Positions 1 to 6,961 of a stretch of 6,961 nt of DNA are shown piece by piece. Origin of the DNA: a virus (Duplodnaviria; Heunggongvirae; Uroviricota; Caudoviricetes); IMG/VR virus record IMGVR_UViG_2531839579_000008. One strand, given 5' to 3'. The position numbers and the translations under genes were made by a program. The stretch's first letter is position 1. Each line of letters begins with the position of its first letter. The notes under the pieces were generated by a model that made no database searches, was not told where the DNA came from, and saw only the letters and a program-made list of their open reading frames with translations.

Positions 1-226
1 TAATTGTATTATCAATAAAATAAAAGCTTGGGCGAGCGCATATAAAGTATATATGGCATTTTGAAAGTTGTTTTTCTTGTTCTAAATTAATTTTTGCATC
101 AGACGTTAGTTGCTGAGCAGTAAGCATCGCTGTAAAACTATTTAAGTATCCAAAAGCAAATTCGTGTATGAATTTTCTTTTCACTCGAAATATCCTCACT
201 AGAAATGAATAATATTGGTTTTTCAT
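1..226 (-). CDS. Hypothetical protein, N-terminal 75 codons only (gene runs off the left edge); candidate accessory/moron gene
   Basis: Reverse-strand frame is open for 75 codons from ATG (complement of 224-226) to position 2, with an in-frame stop (complement of 236-238) just upstream, so this ATG is the first possible start. An uninterrupted frame this long is unusual in DNA of about 30% GC (my count: 26% in 1-100, 35% in 101-200). Translation begins MKNQYYSFLVRIFRVKRKFIHEFAFGYLNSFTAMLTAQQLTSDAKINLEQEKQLSKCH; I recognise no family. No convincing Shine-Dalgarno. Missing from the supplied ORF track probably because it is edge-truncated. Confidence 0.45.
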   Translation of the reverse strand, partial: MKNQYYSFLVRIFRVKRKFIHEFAFGYLNSFTAMLTAQQLTSDAKINLEQEKQLSKCHIYFICARPSFYFIDNTI

Positions 227-555
227 GATAATACTCTATTGATCCTAGACTTACCATTTAAAAAACGAACTGACATGCTCCCGTTGATTAATAAGCTGTA
301 AGGTTAGCAATTCTTTTGGCGTTGAGAACAACTGCGAACTTCCGTTCCTTGCTCAAAGCAGACTGTTAGATTTGATAGCGTTTGGGCTATGTAAGTAGCC
401 AGTTGGAGAATGAGTGAGTGCAAATCAGGACTGGCGGGCGAATTGCCTGCATTTTCTTTATCTGTTGTTTCATCCACTGACCAGCCAGGTCAAATAGCGT
501 CTTATGCTCTGCACAACAGAAAATAGTTGCACCCATTAACCACGGAGTTAAACGG
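227..555. promoter_or_regulatory. Divergent intergenic region; expected to hold the promoter of the reverse-strand ORF and the late promoter of the FI-FII-E-T-U-D operon
   Basis: 329 bp with no ORF of any size worth calling, lying between two divergently oriented genes, and a composition shift from AT-rich (left) to GC-rich (right). Shine-Dalgarno GGAG at 545-548, 7 nt before the FI ATG. I scanned 420-555 for the Ogr-type TGT-N12-ACA dyad of P2 late promoters and found no exact match, so no promoter position is called. Confidence 0.3.
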
Positions 556-1741
556 ATGAGTGACTATCATCATGGCGTGCAGGTGCTGGAGATTAACGAC
601 GGCACCCGCGTCATTTCCACCGTATCCACTGCCATTGTCGGCATGGTCTGCACGGCCAGCGATGCGGATGCGGAAACCTTCCCCCTCAATAAACCGGTGC
701 TGATTACCAATGTGCAAAGCGCAATTGCAAAGGCCGGTAAAAAAGGCACGCTGGCGGCATCGTTGCAGGCCATCGCTGACCAGTCAAAACCGGTCACCGT
801 TGTCGTGCGCGTGGAAGACGGCACCGGTGATGACGAGGAAACGAAACTCGCGCAGACCGTTTCCAATATCATCGGCACCACCGACGAAAACGGTCAGTAC
901 ACCGGACTAAAAGCCCTGCTGGCGGTGGAGTCGGTAACCGGTGTTAAACCGCGTATTCTCGGTGTGCCGGGACTGGACACCAAAGAGGTGGCTGTTGCAC
1001 TGGCATCCGTCTGTCAGAAGCTGCGCGCTTTCGGATATATCAGCGCATGGGGCTGTAAGACCATTTCCGAGGTGAAAGCCTACCGCCAGAATTTCAGCCA
1101 GCGTGAGCTGATGGTCATCTGGCCGGATTTCCTCGCATGGGATACGGTCACCAGTACCACCGCCACCGCGTATGCCACCGCCCGTGCGCTGGGTCTGCGC
1201 GCTAAAATCGACCAGGAGCAGGGCTGGCATAAAACGCTGTCCAACGTCGGGGTAAACGGTGTTACCGGCATCAGCGCATCTGTATTCTGGGATTTGCAGG
1301 AGTCGGCACCGATGCTGACCTGCTTAACGAGTCAGGCGTCACTACGCTGATTCGCCGCGACGGTTTCCGTTCTGGGGTAACCGTACCTGCTCTGATGACC
1401 CGCTGTTCCTCTTTGAAAACTAACCCGCACCGCGCAGGTGTGGCCGACACGATGGCTGAGGCGCACATGTGGGCGGTGGACAAGCCCATCACCGCAACGC
1501 TGATTCGCGACATCGTTGACGGCATCAATGCCAAATTCGTGAGCTGAAAACAAACGGCTATATCGTGGATGCGACCTGCTGGTTCAGCGAAGAATCCAAC
1601 GATGCGGAAACCCTCAAGGCCGGAAAACTGTATATCGACTACGACTATACACCGGTGCCTCCTCTTGAAAACCTGACCCTGCGCCAGCGTATTACCGATA
1701 AATACCTGGCAAATCTGGTCACTTCGGTTAACAGCAATTAA
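556..1741 (+). pseudogene. FI: Tail sheath protein gpFI (P2 family), reading frame interrupted; intact only for 556..1350 (264 aa)
   Basis: N-terminus MSDYHHGVQVLEINDGTRVISTVSTAIVGMVC matches P2 gpFI as I recall it. The ORF stops at 1348-1350, but coding continues in shifted frames: frame 0 (1308-1370) TDADLLNESGVTTLIRRDGFR, frame 2 (1373-1420) WGNRTCSDDPLFLFEN, frame 1 (1423-1440) TRTAQV, frame 0 (1443-1538) ADTMAEAHMWAVDKPITATLIRDIVDGINAKF, frame 2 (1541-1738) ELKTNGYIVDATCWFSEESNDAETLKAGKLYIDYDYTPVPPLENLTLRQRITDKYLANLVTSVNSN, with stop TAA at 1739-1741 overlapping the FII Shine-Dalgarno. Each hop is a -1 step, so five single-base losses near 1305, 1371, 1421, 1440 and 1539. Corrected length would be about 396 aa, the typical sheath size. 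Confidence 0.85.
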
Positions 1742-1753
1742 GGAGCCTGACCG

Positions 1754-2272
1754 ATGGCAATGCCGCGCAAACTCAAGTTAATGAACGTCTTTCTGAACGG
1801 CTACAGCTATCAGGGCGTTGCAAAGTCCGTCACGCTGCCAAAACTGACCCGTAAGCTTGAAAACTATCGCGGTGCGGGGATGAACGGCAGCGCACCGGTA
1901 GACCTCGGCCTTGATGACGATGCGCTGTCAATGGAGTGGTCGCTCGGTGGCTTCCCGGATTCGGTTATCTGGGAGCTTTACGCCGCAACCGGCGTGGATG
2001 CCGTCCCGATTCGTTTTGCAGGCTCTTACCAGCGCGACGATACCGGCGAAACGGTGGCCGTTGAGGTGGTCATGCGTGGACGTCAGAAAGAAATCGACAC
2101 CGGCGAGGGTAAACAGGGAGAAGACACCGAGTCGAAAATCTCCGTGGTCTGCACCTATTTCCGGCTGACGATGGACGGTAAGGAGCTGGTCGAAATCGAC
2201 ACCATCAACATGATTGAGAAGGTGAACGGCGTCGACCGGCTGGAGCAACACCGCCGCAATATCGGCCTGTGA
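1754..2272 (+). CDS. FII: Tail tube protein gpFII (P2 family)
   Basis: Intact 172-aa ORF beginning MAMPRKLKLMNVFLNGYSYQGVAKSVTLPKL, matching P2 gpFII in sequence and length as recalled. Strong Shine-Dalgarno AAGGAG at 1740-1745. Immediately follows the sheath gene as in P2. Confidence 0.9.
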   Translation: MAMPRKLKLMNVFLNGYSYQGVAKSVTLPKLTRKLENYRGAGMNGSAPVDLGLDDDALSMEWSLGGFPDSVIWELYAATGVDAVPIRFAGSYQRDDTGETVAVEVVMRGRQKEIDTGEGKQGEDTESKISVVCTYFRLTMDGKELVEIDTINMIEKVNGVDRLEQHRRNIGL

Positions 2273-2279
2273 TTTTCAT

Positions 2280-2300
2280 CCGGTCAGCCTGGCTGACCGG
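2280..2300 (+). other. Perfect palindrome / stem-loop between FII and E
   Basis: CCGGTCAGCC-T-GGCTGACCGG: two 10-nt arms that are exact reverse complements around a single central T, starting 8 nt after the FII stop. It is followed by TTAACCCC, not a U-run, so it is not a canonical intrinsic terminator. Confidence 0.35.
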
Positions 2301-2328
2301 TTAACCCCGATTCATAAGTGAGAAAACC

Positions 2329-2604
2329 ATGAACAAAGAAAATGTGATTACCCTGGACAATCCGGTCAAACGTGGTGAGCAGGTTATCGAACAGGTCACG
2401 CTGATGAAACCCAGTGCCGGGACGCTGCGCGGTGTCAGTCTGGCAGCGGTCGCAAACTCCGAAGTCGATGCACTGATTAAGGTGTTGCCGCGCATGACGG
2501 CACCGATGCTGACCGAGCAGGAAGTCGCCGCACTGGAACTGCCTGACCTTGTGGCGCTGGCCGGTAAGGTGGTCGGTTTTTTGTCGCCGAACTCGGTGCA
2601 GTGA
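2329..2604 (+). CDS. E: Tail assembly chaperone gpE (P2 family)
   Basis: Intact 91-aa ORF MNKENVITLDNPVKRGEQVIEQVTLMKPSAGTLRGVSLAAVANSEVDALIKVLPRMTAPMLTEQEVAALELPDLVALAGKVVGFLSPNSVQ, matching P2 gpE in sequence and length as recalled. Confidence 0.9.
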   Translation: MNKENVITLDNPVKRGEQVIEQVTLMKPSAGTLRGVSLAAVANSEVDALIKVLPRMTAPMLTEQEVAALELPDLVALAGKVVGFLSPNSVQ

Positions 2605-2756
2605 CGTTCCCGAAAAATCTGTCGGTCGATGACCTGATGGCGGATGTGGCAGTGATATTTCACTGGCCGCCATCAGAACTGTATCCCATGAGCCTGACCG
2701 AACTCATCACATGGCGCGAAAAGGCGCTCCGGCGAAGCGGAAACACGAATGAGTAA
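2329..2756 (+). CDS. E': gpE+E' fusion made by programmed -1 ribosomal frameshift near the 3' end of E
   Basis: Slippery run TTTTTTG at 2577-2583 inside the last codons of E. The -1 frame from 2583 is open to TAA at 2754-2756 and reads VAELGAVTFPKNLSVDDLMADVAVIFHWPPSELYPMSLTELITWREKALRRSGNTNE. Total about 142 aa, the size I recall for P2 E+E'. The E' stop overlaps the T start at 2749. Confidence 0.8.
2577..2583 (+). other. Programmed -1 frameshift slippery site (T6G) for E/E'
   Basis: TTTTTTG heptamer, 20 nt before the E stop codon, with an open -1 frame downstream. This is the arrangement of the conserved tail-chaperone frameshift in P2 (gpE/E') and lambda (gpG/GT). Confidence 0.75.
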
Positions 2757-5174
2757 CAATGTAAAATTACAGGTATTGCTCAGGGCTGTTGACCAGGCAT
2801 CCCGCCCGTTTAAATCCATCCGCACAGCGAGCAAATCGCTGTCGGGGGATATCCGGGAAACACAAAAATCACTGCGCGAGCTGAACGGTCACGCATCCCG
2901 TATTGAGGGATTCGCAAGACCAGTGCACAGCTCGCCGTGACTGGTCATGCACTTGAAAAGGCACGGCAGGAGGCCGAAGCCCTTGCCACACAGTTTAAAA
3001 ACACCGAACGTCCGACACGTGCTCAGGCGAAAGTGCTGGAATCGCAAGCGGCGGCGGAGGACTTACAGGCGAAATATAACCGCCTGACGGATTCCGTTAA
3101 ACGCCAGCAGCGGGAACTGGCCGTTGTGGGAATTAATACCCGCAATCTTGCACATGATGAGCAGGGACTGAAAAACCGTATCAGTGAAACCACCGCCCAG
3201 CTTAACCGGCAGCGTGACGCGCTGGCGCGTGTCAGTGCGCAACAGGCAAAACTTAACGCAGTCAAACAGCGTTATCAGGCCGGAAAGGAACTGGCCGGAA
3301 ATATGGCCTCAGTGGGCGCTGCCGGTGTGGGGATTGCTGCTGCGGGAACGATGGCCGGAGTTAAGTTGCTGATGCCCGGTTATGAGTTTGCGCAGAAAAA
3401 CTCAGAATTGCAGGCTGTGCTCGGTGTGGCAAAAGACTCCGCCGAAATGGCCGCGCTCCGCAAGCAGGCGCGCCAGCTCGGCGACAATACCGCAGCCTCG
3501 GCAGATGATGCAGCCGGTGCGCAGATTATTATTGCGAAAGCCGGTGGGGATGTTGATGCCATTCAGGCGGCAACGCCGGTCACGTTGAATATGGCGCTGG
3601 CGAACCGCCGCACGATGGAAGAAAACGCCGCCCTGCTGATGGGGATGAAATCCGCCTTTCAGCTTTCAAACGATAAGGTCGCTCATATCGGGGATGTTCT
3701 CTCCATGACGATGAACAAAACCGCCGCCGATTTTGACGGTATGAGCGATGCGCTGACCTATGCCGCACCTGTGGCAAAAAATGCCGGTGTCAGCATTGAA
3801 GAAACCGCCGCAATGGTCGGGGCGCTGCATGATGCAAAAATCACAGGCTCAATGGCGGGGACGGGAAGCCGTGCCGTGTTAAGCCGCCTGCAGGCACCGA
3901 CGGGAAAAGCATGGGATGCACTCAAAGAGCTTGGAGTGAAAACCTCAGACAGCAAGGGAAACACCCGGCCAATATTTACCATTCTGAAAGAAATGCAGGC
4001 CAGTTTTGAGAAAAACCGGCTCGGTACTGCCCAGCAGGCTGAATACATGAAAACCATTTTCGGGGAGGAGGCCAGCTCAGCCGCCGCTGTGCTGATGACT
4101 GCCGCCTCAACCGGAAAGCTGGACAAACTGACCGCTGCGTTTAAAGCCTCAGACGGGAAGACCGCAGAGCTGGTAAATATCATGCAGGACAACCTCGGCG
4201 GTGACTTTAAGGAGTTTCAGTCCGCTTATGAGGCGGTGGGGACGACCTGTTTGACCAGCAGGAAGGCGCACTGCGTAATCTCACGCAGACGGCCACAAAG
4301 TATGTGTTAAAACTCGACGGCTGGATCCAGAAAAACAAATCACTGGCGTCAACCATCGGCTCATTGTCGGTGGGCCTGGCCTATTGGTCATCGGTGCCAT
4401 TGGCTGTAGCCTGGCCGGTTATCACGGCATCAATGCCATCATCGCGGCAGCAGGCGCAATGGGGGCATCTTCACGACGGTTGGCAGTGCTGTTATGACGC
4501 CATCGGGGCGATTAGCTGGCCGGTTGTGGCCGTGGTGGCCGCCATTGTCGCCGGGGCGTTGCTTATCCGTAAATACTGGGAGCCTGTCAGCGCATTCTTT
4601 GGCGGTGTGGTGGAAGGGCTGAAAGCGGCATTTGCGCCGGTGGGGGAACTGTTCACGCCACTTAAACCGGTGTTTGACTGGCTGGGCGAAAAGTTACAGG
4701 CCGCGTGGCAGTGGTTTAAAAACCTGATTGCCCCGGTCAAAGCCACCCAGGACACCCTGAACCGTTGCCGTGACACGGGCGTCATGTTCGGGCAGGCACT
4801 GGCTGACGCGCTGATGCTGCCGCTTAATGCGTTCAACAAACTGCGCGGCGGTATTGACTGGGTACTGGAAAAACTCGGCGTCATCAACAAAGAGTCAGGC
4901 ACGCTTGACCAGACCGCCGCCAGAACTCATGCCGCCACGTATGGCACCGGTGGTTATATTCCGGCGACCAGCTCTTATGCAGGTTATCAGGCTTATCAGC
5001 CGGTCACGGCACCGGCTGGCCGCTCTTATGTAGACCAGAGTAAAAACGAATATCACATCACCTGACGGGGGTACTCGCCGGGGAACAGCTCGACCGCCAG
5101 TTACAGGATGCCTCGAAAAATACGAGCGGGATAAACGTGCGCGCGCCCGTGCCAGCATGATGCATGACGGTTAA
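2749..5174 (+). pseudogene. T: Tail tape measure protein gpT (P2 family), reading frame interrupted at several points
   Basis: N-terminus MSNNVKLQVLLRAVDQASRPFKSIRTASKSL matches P2 gpT as recalled. The track splits the gene into 2749..2940 (frame 1), 2937..4310 (frame 0) and 4304..5065 (frame 2). Frame hops: near 2913 (IEGF then RKTSAQLAVTGHAL in the next frame); near 4244 (EAVGT then LFDQQEGALRNLTQTATKYVLKLDGW); three hops in 4362-4499 within a hydrophobic segment; near 5062 and 5112, after which frame 0 reads LEKYERDKRARARASMMHDG to TAA at 5172-5174, which overlaps the U Shine-Dalgarno AAGGAGG (5173-5179). Corrected length about 810 aa, against about 815 aa recalled for P2 gpT. Confidence 0.85.
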
Positions 5175-5188
5175 GGAGGTGACGAAAA

Positions 5189-5662
5189 ATGATGCTCGCG
5201 TTAGGTATGTTTGTTTTTATGCGCCAGACGCTGCCACACCAGACCATGCAGCGTGAATCAGATTATCGCTGGCCGTCAAATTCCCGTATCGGTAAACGGG
5301 AGCTTTCAGTTTCTCGGTGTGGGAGGAAAACATCACGCTTGCCGGTGTGCTTTATCCCGACTGACCGGCGGAAGCTGACGATGACCACGCTCAGGCTGAT
5401 GGCAGAGGAAGGCCGGGCGTGGCCGTTGCTGGATGGCACCGGCATGATTTACGGCATGTATGTCATCAGCAGGGTGAGTGAAGCAGGGAGTATTTTCTTT
5501 GCAGACGGCACACCCCGAAAAATTGATTTTACGCTGTCGCTTACCCGCGTTGATGAATCACTGGCCGCGCTTTATGGCGATATCGGTAAACAGGCGGAAT
5601 CGCTCATCGGTAAGGCTGGCAGTATGGCGACTAAATTCACGGGTATGACGGGGGCGGGATAA
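5189..5662 (+). CDS. U: Tail protein gpU (P2 family); full-length frame but with an internal 25-aa stretch that appears to be read out of frame
   Basis: 157-aa ORF with Shine-Dalgarno AAGGAGG at 5173-5179. The N-terminus MMLALGMFVFMRQTLPHQTMQRESDYRWPSNSRIGKR and the C-terminus KLTMTTLRLMAEEGRAWPLLDGTGMIYGMYVISRVSEAGSIFFADGTPRKIDFTLSLTRVDESLAALYGDIGKQAESLIGKAGSMATKFTGMTGAG match P2 gpU as recalled. The middle segment ELSVSRCGRKTSRLPVCFIPTDRR (5300-5371) is Arg/Cys-rich, while the other two frames over the same bases read FQFLGVG, EENITLAGVLYP and LTGG. Confidence 0.85.
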   Translation: MMLALGMFVFMRQTLPHQTMQRESDYRWPSNSRIGKRELSVSRCGRKTSRLPVCFIPTDRRKLTMTTLRLMAEEGRAWPLLDGTGMIYGMYVISRVSEAGSIFFADGTPRKIDFTLSLTRVDESLAALYGDIGKQAESLIGKAGSMATKFTGMTGAG

Positions 5663-6825
5663 TGCTGGATGCGCTGACATTTGATGCAGGCAGTACGCTG
5701 ACGCCGGATTACATGCTGATGCTCGACAGCAGGGATATTACCGGCAATATCAGCGACCGTCTGATGAGCATGACCCTGACGGATAACCGGGGCTTTGAGG
5801 CTGACCAGCTTGATATTGAACTGAACGATGCCGACGGGCAGGTCGGGCTACCGATTCGTGGCGCTGTCCTGACGGTGTATATCGGCTGGAAAGGTTTTGC
5901 CCTGGTATGCAAAGGGAAATTTACCGTTGATGAGGTTGAACACCGGGGCGCGCCGGATGTGGTTACCATCCGCGCCCGGAGTGCAGATTTCCGCGGGACG
6001 CTTAATTCCCGCCGGGAAGGCTCCTGGCATGACACCACGCTCGGTGCGATTGTTGAGGCGATAGCCTCCCGTAACAAGCTGGAGGCCAGTGTCGCTCCGT
6101 CACTGGCCGGAATTAAAATCCCGCACATCGACCAGTCGCAGGAGTCTGATGCGAAATTCCTGATCCGTCTTGCTGAACGCAACGGCGGTGAGGTGTCGGT
6201 AAAAATGGGAAAACTGTTGTTTCTTAAGGCGGGGCAGGGGGTGACGGCCAGCGGTAAAAAAATCCCGCAGATTACCATCACCCGCAGCGACGGCGACCGT
6301 CATCATTTTGCGATTGCTGACCGTGGAGCCTACACCGGTGTAACGGCAAAATGGCTACACACCAAAGACCCGAAGCCTCAAAAGCAGAAGGTAAAACTGA
6401 AACGTAAAAAGAAAGAGAAACACCTGCGCGCACTGGAGCACCCGAAAGCGAAACCGGTCAGGCAGAAGAAAGCGCCTAAAGTACCGGAAGCGCGTGAAGG
6501 TGAATACATGGCCGGTGAGGCTGACAACGTTTTTGCCCTGACCACGGTATATGCCACGAAAGCACAGGCCATGCGTGCCGCTCAGGCGAAGTGGGATAAG
6601 CTGCAACGGGGTGTAGCGGAGTTCTCCATCAGCCTGGCTACTGGTCGGGCAGATATTTACACGGAAACACCGGTTAAAGTGTCAGGCTTTAAGCGCGTCA
6701 TAGACGAGCAGGACTGGACAATCACTAAGGTGACACATTTTCTGAATAACAGCGGCTTCACGACGTCCCTGGAGCTTGAGGTCAGGCTTTCTGATGTGAA
6801 GTACGAAACAGAAGATGATGAGTGA
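5662..6825 (+). CDS. D: Tail protein gpD (phage late control gene D family, P2 family)
   Basis: Intact 387-aa ORF MLDALTFDAGSTLTPDYMLMLDSRDITGNISDRLMSMTLTDNRGFEADQLDIELNDADGQ, matching P2 gpD in sequence and length as recalled. Its start overlaps the U stop (TAATG at 5660-5664). Contains the lysine-rich basic stretch typical of gpD. Confidence 0.9.
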   Translation: MLDALTFDAGSTLTPDYMLMLDSRDITGNISDRLMSMTLTDNRGFEADQLDIELNDADGQVGLPIRGAVLTVYIGWKGFALVCKGKFTVDEVEHRGAPDVVTIRARSADFRGTLNSRREGSWHDTTLGAIVEAIASRNKLEASVAPSLAGIKIPHIDQSQESDAKFLIRLAERNGGEVSVKMGKLLFLKAGQGVTASGKKIPQITITRSDGDRHHFAIADRGAYTGVTAKWLHTKDPKPQKQKVKLKRKKKEKHLRALEHPKAKPVRQKKAPKVPEAREGEYMAGEADNVFALTTVYATKAQAMRAAQAKWDKLQRGVAEFSISLATGRADIYTETPVKVSGFKRVIDEQDWTITKVTHFLNNSGFTTSLELEVRLSDVKYETEDDE

Positions 6826-6906
6826 TGTTTTGTTTTTATCTGTTTGTTTTATAAGGATAAATTAACTAAAATGGCACCATCAACAAAACCGGAAGAGGTG
6901 CTCGCG
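6826..6906 (+). promoter_or_regulatory. D-ogr intergenic region, presumed to carry the ogr promoter and ribosome-binding site
   Basis: 81-bp AT-rich spacer containing a TATAAG -10-like hexamer at 6850-6855 and a Shine-Dalgarno AAGAGG (about 6893-6898) 8 nt before the ATG at 6907. I could not find a well-spaced -35 element, and there is no GC-rich hairpin after the D stop. Confidence 0.3.
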
Positions 6907-6961
6907 ATGTTTCATTGTCCTTTATGCCAGCATGCCGCACATGCGCGTACAAGTCGCTATA
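6907..6961 (+). CDS. ogr: Ogr zinc-finger late-gene transcriptional activator, 5' end only (runs off the right edge)
   Basis: Translation from ATG 6907 reads MFHCPLCQHAAHARTSRY, which is the N-terminus of P2 Ogr as I recall it and includes the CxxC zinc-binding motif. It sits directly after D as in P2. An in-frame ATG at 6871 would add 12 residues (MAPSTKPEEVLA) but has a poorer ribosome-binding site. Confidence 0.85.
   Translation, partial: MFHCPLCQHAAHARTSRY

Follow-up and report, generated by a model that had tools for sequence, protein, structure and literature searches.

A frame break in the tape measure gene of a P2-like prophage in a draft Escherichia coli genome is very probably an assembly consensus error

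The tail operon of phage P2 has the gene order FI-FII-E-E'-T-U-D, and its gene T, lying between E/E' and U, encodes the Peduovirus tape measure protein gpT (NP_046782.1). The same operon holds an annotated recoding event, the programmed -1 frameshift that produces E/E+E', which is analogous to that of lambda G/GT. Prophages also decay, bacterial mutation is biased toward deletion, and the structural genes of defective prophages are found as frameshifted pseudogenes cut by small indels. Collapsed-repeat and chimeric contigs of short-read assemblies form a further system with which a broken prophage gene can be compared. The window considered here, a 6,961-nucleotide stretch analysed over its whole length, is the entire contig AQBU01000162.1 of the E. 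coli p0305293.11 draft assembly, GCA_000358575.2. A P2-like (Peduovirus) prophage tail operon fills it from FI to ogr; the sequence is collinear with P2 at 96.4% nucleotide identity (about 96-97%) and keeps the operon order of P2. Alignment with P2 placed FI (tail sheath) from position 556 on the plus strand, FII at 1754-2272, E at 2329-2604, E' at 2601-2756, U at 5189-5662, and D at 5662-6825. The tape measure gene T occupies 2749-5174 on the plus strand, and only the start of ogr is present, the window terminating inside that gene about 100 nt before its end.

Read directly, T begins with an ATG at 2749, and the open reading frame 2749-2940 encodes 63 aa (ENG46113.1) ending ...RIEGFARPVHSSP* at a premature plus-strand TGA (2938-2940), which closes this first fragment. 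Codon 55 is TTC (Phe) at 2911-2913, and the adjacent frame from 2913 reads RKTSAQLAVTGHALEKARQ... and stays open to 4310, the continuation after the break running RKTSAQLAVTGHAL... from 2913. This start, this stop and a continuation that shares base 2913 with the interrupted frame had been described in the initial annotation, and direct reading bears all of them out. In a tblastn search with P2 gpT, residues 1-57 matched in frame 1 and residues 54-597 in frame 3, and the matches as a whole ran through frames 1, 3, 2, and 3 in order. On the sequence evidence, a near-identical gpT continuation of 457 codons in the adjacent frame is far beyond what chance would be expected to give. This second fragment (2937-4310, plus strand, 457 aa, ENG46114.1) is matched by PF10145 PhageMin_Tail with E=7e-46, and a third (4304-5065, plus strand, 253 aa, ENG46115.1) carries the name hypothetical protein in the record. 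With a tail piece, these ORFs make up T as deposited, in three or four fragments; a single ORF of about 815 codons is absent from the deposited sequence and present after restoration of 22 bases.

At the break site (2911-2915, plus strand), the window has TTCGC where its relatives have TTCCGC or TTTCGC, one base being missing after 2912. Where the window reads GAGGGATT followed directly by CGCAAGAC, P2 reads GAGGGATT, then C, then CGCAAGAC, and the pairwise alignment with P2 T shows exactly one missing C at this point, with the gap after 2912. A base is present in this column in all 45 and in all 49 relatives of two multiple alignments, so that the proposal of one missing base at 2911-2915 is upheld by P2 and by the wider set. 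The identity of that base had been given as a C of TTC CGC. Relative to P2 this stands, and the column is likewise C in the related contigs L086 (p0305293.1), L094 (p0305293.4), and L088, the closest relative of the window; it is T in L091 (AQBT01000112.1) and in both prophage copies of the enterotoxigenic E. coli (ETEC) strain 602354. The window agrees with L091 at the variable sites on either side (2799-2924), and L091 has TTT CGC; the base truly lost at 2912 may therefore be a T instead of a C, the codon being Phe in both cases.

A functional break was considered, either as a programmed ribosomal frameshift at 2911-2915 or as two products, the second beginning at the GTG at 2937. Such a reading could draw on the programmed -1 frameshift of the neighboring E/E+E' pair, which is annotated in P2, and on the 4-nt overlap of the two T ORFs. 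The initial annotation had named shared sequence at this site and translation from an internal start near 2937 in homologous T genes as the finding that would overturn its own proposal. No homologue has the two-frame arrangement; all carry one more base and a continuous ORF of 815 codons, uninterrupted at this site. In the break sequence GGATTCGCAAG, ATTCGC is not a slippery heptamer of the form X XXY YYZ. Further breaks follow in T at 4243, 4360-4498, and 5060-5111, and FI and U are broken likewise. In intact T, the GTG at 2937 corresponds to Val codon 64 (...QLAVTGH...), read in frame; it is merely the first start codon in the frame of the second fragment and no real start. A programmed frameshift or internal start at 2937 was rejected since no homologue shares it and since there are many further breaks, and we regard a functional role for the break as barely credible. 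The E/E+E' site of the same contig provides the contrast. There, a genuine, conserved, and intact T TTT TTG heptamer lies at 2577-2583 on the plus strand, outside the artefact, and the frameshift annotation of P2 at L001 position 2985 maps to window position 2584. Both cases involve two overlapping frames in a tail gene of one operon, but the E/E+E' site has a slippery heptamer, an annotation in P2, and overlapping ORFs in other relatives, whereas the T break has none of these and occurs in one contig only.

The break had been taken as a single event. It is real, but 21 more bases are missing farther along in T, and the window lacks 33 in all. The pairwise alignment with P2 contains about 30 further one-base gaps besides 2912, all of them deletions, and when 45 and then 49 full-length relatives were aligned, there were 33 columns in which every relative had a base and the window had a gap (5 in FI, 22 in T, and 6 in U). 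In these alignments, none of the 33 gaps was shared by any relative and the coding part of the window had no private insertion; private substitutions outside the deletion clusters numbered only about 11. On the plus strand of FI, five bases are missing between 1303 and 1537, all at columns that vary among the relatives, and FI is split into pieces of 264, 50, and 58 aa. The further plus-strand gaps in T comprise three missing bases within 9 nt at 3042-3050, which are net in frame and turn ...LESAKRAAED... into ...LESQAAAED...; 13 at 4243-4498, with one at 4243 and twelve in 4360-4498; and five at 5060-5111, close to the T 3' end, four of which sit at positions that differ between the prophage copies of strain 602354. 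Six more plus-strand bases are missing from U at 5301-5371, which shortens the product from 159 to 157 aa and scrambles the stretch between them, and U as deposited is only 84% identical to P2 gpU.

Restoring the missing bases yielded a T of 815 aa with no internal stop, identical to P2 gpT at 803 of 815 residues (98.5%), together with an FI of 396 aa and a U of 159 aa, neither with a stop codon. Repaired FI and repaired U both had matches in an exact protein look-up, FI being equal to proteins of related assemblies. Repaired T had no exact match in the protein collection searched, probably because the restored bases and the mosaic differ from the true sequence. That the break is one of 33 missing bases private to a single contig argues for an assembly artefact, and we consider it very probable that the frame was lost at 2912/2913 through faulty consensus calling in a collapsed-repeat draft contig and that neither the phage nor the bacterium has this break.

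The distribution of substitutions bears on whether the deletions might instead be genuine mutations, with p0305293.11 carrying a decaying prophage in which T, FI, and U became true pseudogenes through single-base deletions. Prophage decay and the deletion bias of bacterial mutation would favor such an origin, as would the fact that the sequence is as submitted by its depositors and that broken T genes occur in other assemblies, for example in L086 and L093. Compared with its closest relative, L088, the window has 57 substitutions, all within four blocks, and none in 1-1947, 3741-4686, 4948-5409, and 5830-6961. Of the 33 missing bases, 29 lie in the first three of these intervals, that is, in 3,355 bp free of any substitution relative to L088. 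Mutation-accumulation studies put small indels in E. coli at roughly a tenth of the frequency of substitutions, and partly for this reason a natural lineage that gains 29 frameshifts with no substitution, insertion, or nonsense change is not credible. The losses are also one-sided in kind, consisting of 33 private one- or two-base deletions with no insertion, no larger deletion, and no nonsense substitution, and they prefer columns that vary between prophage copies, for which a mutational process gives no reason.

Neither is the lesion inherited or shared. T, FI, and U are intact, at 815, 396, and 159 aa, in two further members of the p0305293 series, p0305293.4 (L094) and AQBT01000112.1 (L091), and in p0305293.1 (L086) T is broken at two other sites, by an extra A in an A-run and by a lost G in GCACTGGCACTG. 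Neither a 35-mer nor a 22-mer across the deletion was matched exactly in IMG/VR or in any of 185,579 GTDB representative genomes, while the 35-mer with the extra C matched at least 80 IMG/VR contigs. Across 1,343 complete E. coli genomes with places matching window positions 2880-2945, the deletion allele was found at none of 1,531 such places; no place reached 99% identity to this segment, the best being 66 of 67 with one gap. Each of ENG46113.1, ENG46114.1, and ENG46115.1 was found on AQBU01000162.1 only. Taken with the substitution pattern, this makes genuine pseudogenization improbable. The window resembles the frameshifted pseudogenes of defective prophages in that structural genes are cut by small indels, and differs from them in that accompanying substitutions, nonsense mutations, and larger deletions are absent and the breaks are unshared. 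That p0305293.11 holds a real prophage copy with these 33 single-base deletions and no substitutions has hardly any likelihood at all. If true, prophage tail genes would have to be the target of a hitherto undescribed mutational process that produces deletions only; a host activity inactivating prophages through -1 frameshifts at certain positions in the sequence would be one example.

The source of the assembly was considered with regard to ordinary sequencing error. The ETEC isolate P0305293.1 comes from Bangladesh (2011), and GSCID is given as its place of sequencing (PMC4309559). In a study of multiple ETEC colonies per patient, genomes were sequenced by Illumina HiSeq2000 and assembled with the Celera Assembler into 36-687 contigs each, with an average coverage of >200x, and isolates were clonal in 10 of 12 patients, both exceptions being other patients (PMC4462620). 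From the naming scheme and this statement about patients, the p0305293 isolates would be clonal, P0305293 itself being absent from the main text of that study. Random read-level errors in homopolymers or at low coverage, unrelated to any repeat collapse, would be compatible with a set of errors that are all deletions, some of which fall in short runs (CC at 1303, 1537, 2912, and 3042; AAA at 3045). Many of the deleted bases lie outside runs, as with the C between CTA and ACC, the C between GGT and GTG, and the T between GAC and GAC, and indel errors are rare in Illumina data at the average coverage reported (PMC4462620). Moreover, the enrichment at copy-variable columns and the contig ends at repeat boundaries, both described below, point to mixed templates, so that random error is a very unlikely source. 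The deletion-only pattern would also be compatible with band compressions in an older Sanger record read from gels, or with nanopore or 454 homopolymer errors; these sources were rejected because the source is an Illumina and Celera draft and many of the gaps fall outside runs.

The surroundings of the prophage module were traced in related contigs, which were recovered by exact look-ups of gpD and of repaired FI and came from the same series as well as from unrelated projects. The module is joined to fieF-pfkA in L086 and L091 and to yegQ in L094, and several complete ETEC genomes with the same country of origin, including 602354 (Bangladesh), carry P2-like prophages at both sites. The ends of the window contig coincide with repeat boundaries. 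The contig of p0305293.4 stops within 6 bp of window position 1; upstream of about 340-350, the 602354 copies diverge in their genes (an S1 family peptidase in one and a hypothetical protein in the other), and here the window matches neither copy and its alignment with P2 ends; at the other side, the window ends inside ogr, ahead of the attachment-site junction. L094 and L091 have different small indels, located in E, E', or D. The nearest prophage lineage is represented by five independent assemblies (L085 and L087-L090), and no indel separates these from one another. The chromosomal flank of L086 is identical to that of L091 over 2.7 kb, yet the two differ at 86 sites inside the prophage, and consequently at least one of them is chimeric or the prophages differ.

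The positions of the missing bases were compared with the columns at which prophage copies vary. Among the 49 relatives, 19 of the 33 missing bases fall at variable columns against a background of 21% (odds ratio 5, p=6e-6), and mean per-column diversity was 0.167 at deleted columns versus 0.037 (p=3e-9). The enrichment was also seen within smaller sets. Eight of the 33 deleted columns, including 2912, vary among three related assemblies, compared with 1.8% of columns (odds ratio 19, p=7e-8), and ten vary between the co-resident copies of the complete ETEC genome 602354, compared with 4.3% (odds ratio 9.7, p=1e-6). Columns known to vary account for no more than about a quarter to a half of the missing bases. 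A test of distance to the nearest variable site in the related assemblies was not significant, the distribution being bimodal with eight exact hits and the rest far away; these remaining bases have a median distance of 55 columns from a variable site, against 27 at random. The deletion clusters showed no correlation with regional diversity (rho=0.01), and the most divergent part of T (3544-4143) has no missing base, which would fit copies too different there to be merged.

About 70 loci were tried in all pairings as parents of a clean two-parent mosaic, and none reproduced the window; even the most successful pair left at least 28 sites unexplained and accounted for 11-12 of 34 deleted columns. 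With L091 and L094 as parents, 69 window sites match neither, and with the 602354 copies as parents many sites match neither, strain 602354 being a different clone. It follows from these failed reconstructions that the true parental copies of p0305293.11 are not among the available sequences.

These observations suggest a consensus error that could have arisen as follows. A single collapsed-repeat contig would have been built from reads of two or more non-identical prophage copies. In calling its consensus, the assembler would then have lost bases at or close to discordant columns, with a preference for those at which the copies disagree; the Celera consensus step may have dropped bases at mixed columns in this manner. 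At 2912, the copies would disagree as T versus C, giving the synonymous Phe codons TTT and TTC. Since the break would then be a consensus error from pooled copies, the true T of isolate p0305293.11 is expected to be intact, with 815 codons. The biological significance of the T break would accordingly be nil, and its value would lie only in quality control. ENG46113.1, ENG46114.1, and ENG46115.1, along with the broken FI and U entries, would be artefactual fragments of P2-type genes and should not be taken as pseudogenes, novel small ORFs, or recoding events. Many one-sided single-base gaps unaccompanied by substitutions, concentrated at copy-variable positions on a short contig bounded by repeats, may serve as a signature for flagging similar cases in scans.

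In comparison with known systems, the gene itself is an ordinary P2-type tape measure gene, and the break matches no known biological mechanism. It shares with P2 gpT its position between E/E' and U, its PF10145 domain, and, once repaired, nearly all of its residues, and differs from P2 gene T in that the deposited version lacks 22 bases. The likeness of the contig is to collapsed-repeat or chimeric short-read contigs. It is short, stands alone, and starts at the break point of another contig of the series, and the lineage, as judged from related assemblies and complete ETEC genomes, carries two or more near-identical copies of the prophage. As in such contigs, the errors are concentrated at positions that vary between copies, and different errors occur in the same module of other assemblies of the series. 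Unlike them, the window carries an exceptionally heavy load of errors that all go one way (33 deletions, no insertions).

Deletion density in the contig peaks at window positions 4373-4387, on a short direct repeat that reads GCACTGGCACTG in the relatives. The single deletion of the related prophage assembly from E. coli p0305293.1 (L086) is located in this same repeat, and the coincidence of that deletion with the cluster in the window therefore marks the repeat as a spot that seems to have a particular tendency to consensus errors. Outside T, five missing bases at window positions 1303-1537 leave the tail sheath gene FI as fragments of 264, 50, and 58 aa, and six missing bases at 5301-5371 leave U as 157 aa with this stretch scrambled. 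The deletion pattern in FI and U is private to the contig, as it is for T.

Small indels in the prophage module differ by assembly, with L086, L094 (p0305293.4), and L091 (AQBT01000112.1) each carrying its own set, and the p0305293 batch as a whole seems error-prone within the prophage repeat. In L086 (AQEK01000042.1), T lies in three pieces, with indels at L086 positions 2590 and 3197; the E and D genes are broken in L094, and the E' gene is truncated in L091. L093, an unrelated metagenome scaffold (ENA ERZ28617149) with an identical FI protein, has T in pieces of 166, 404, and 228 aa and D in two (L093 2995-6862), and these broken genes may be a further mixed-copy or mixed-strain consensus problem.

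Two P2-like prophages (L100 and L101) are present in E. coli 602354, a complete ETEC genome from Bangladesh (NZ_CP025847.1), one adjoining fieF-pfkA and the other adjoining yegQ. The FI, FII, E, and E' proteins of the two copies are identical, whereas T, U, and D are different, with strong divergence in T at about window positions 3500-4170.

At the 5′ end of the window, the initial 340-350 bases have their matches in prophages, among them the one in strain 05-3629 (L084), with no match to P2 or to either 602354 prophage copy, and window 1-350 is a variable cargo region upstream of FI. The end of the p0305293.4 contig lies at most 6 bp from window base 1. Also upstream of FI, a 49-aa ORF on the minus strand (window 387-536), a putative gene called in the window record and also in L091 and L094, matched no Pfam family.

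The window retains an intact T TTT TTG heptamer at positions 2577-2583, ~330 nt upstream of the T break at 2912. This heptamer is the true -1 programmed frameshift site of the E/E+E' tail chaperone genes, and its counterpart in P2 is the annotated E/E+E' frameshift site.
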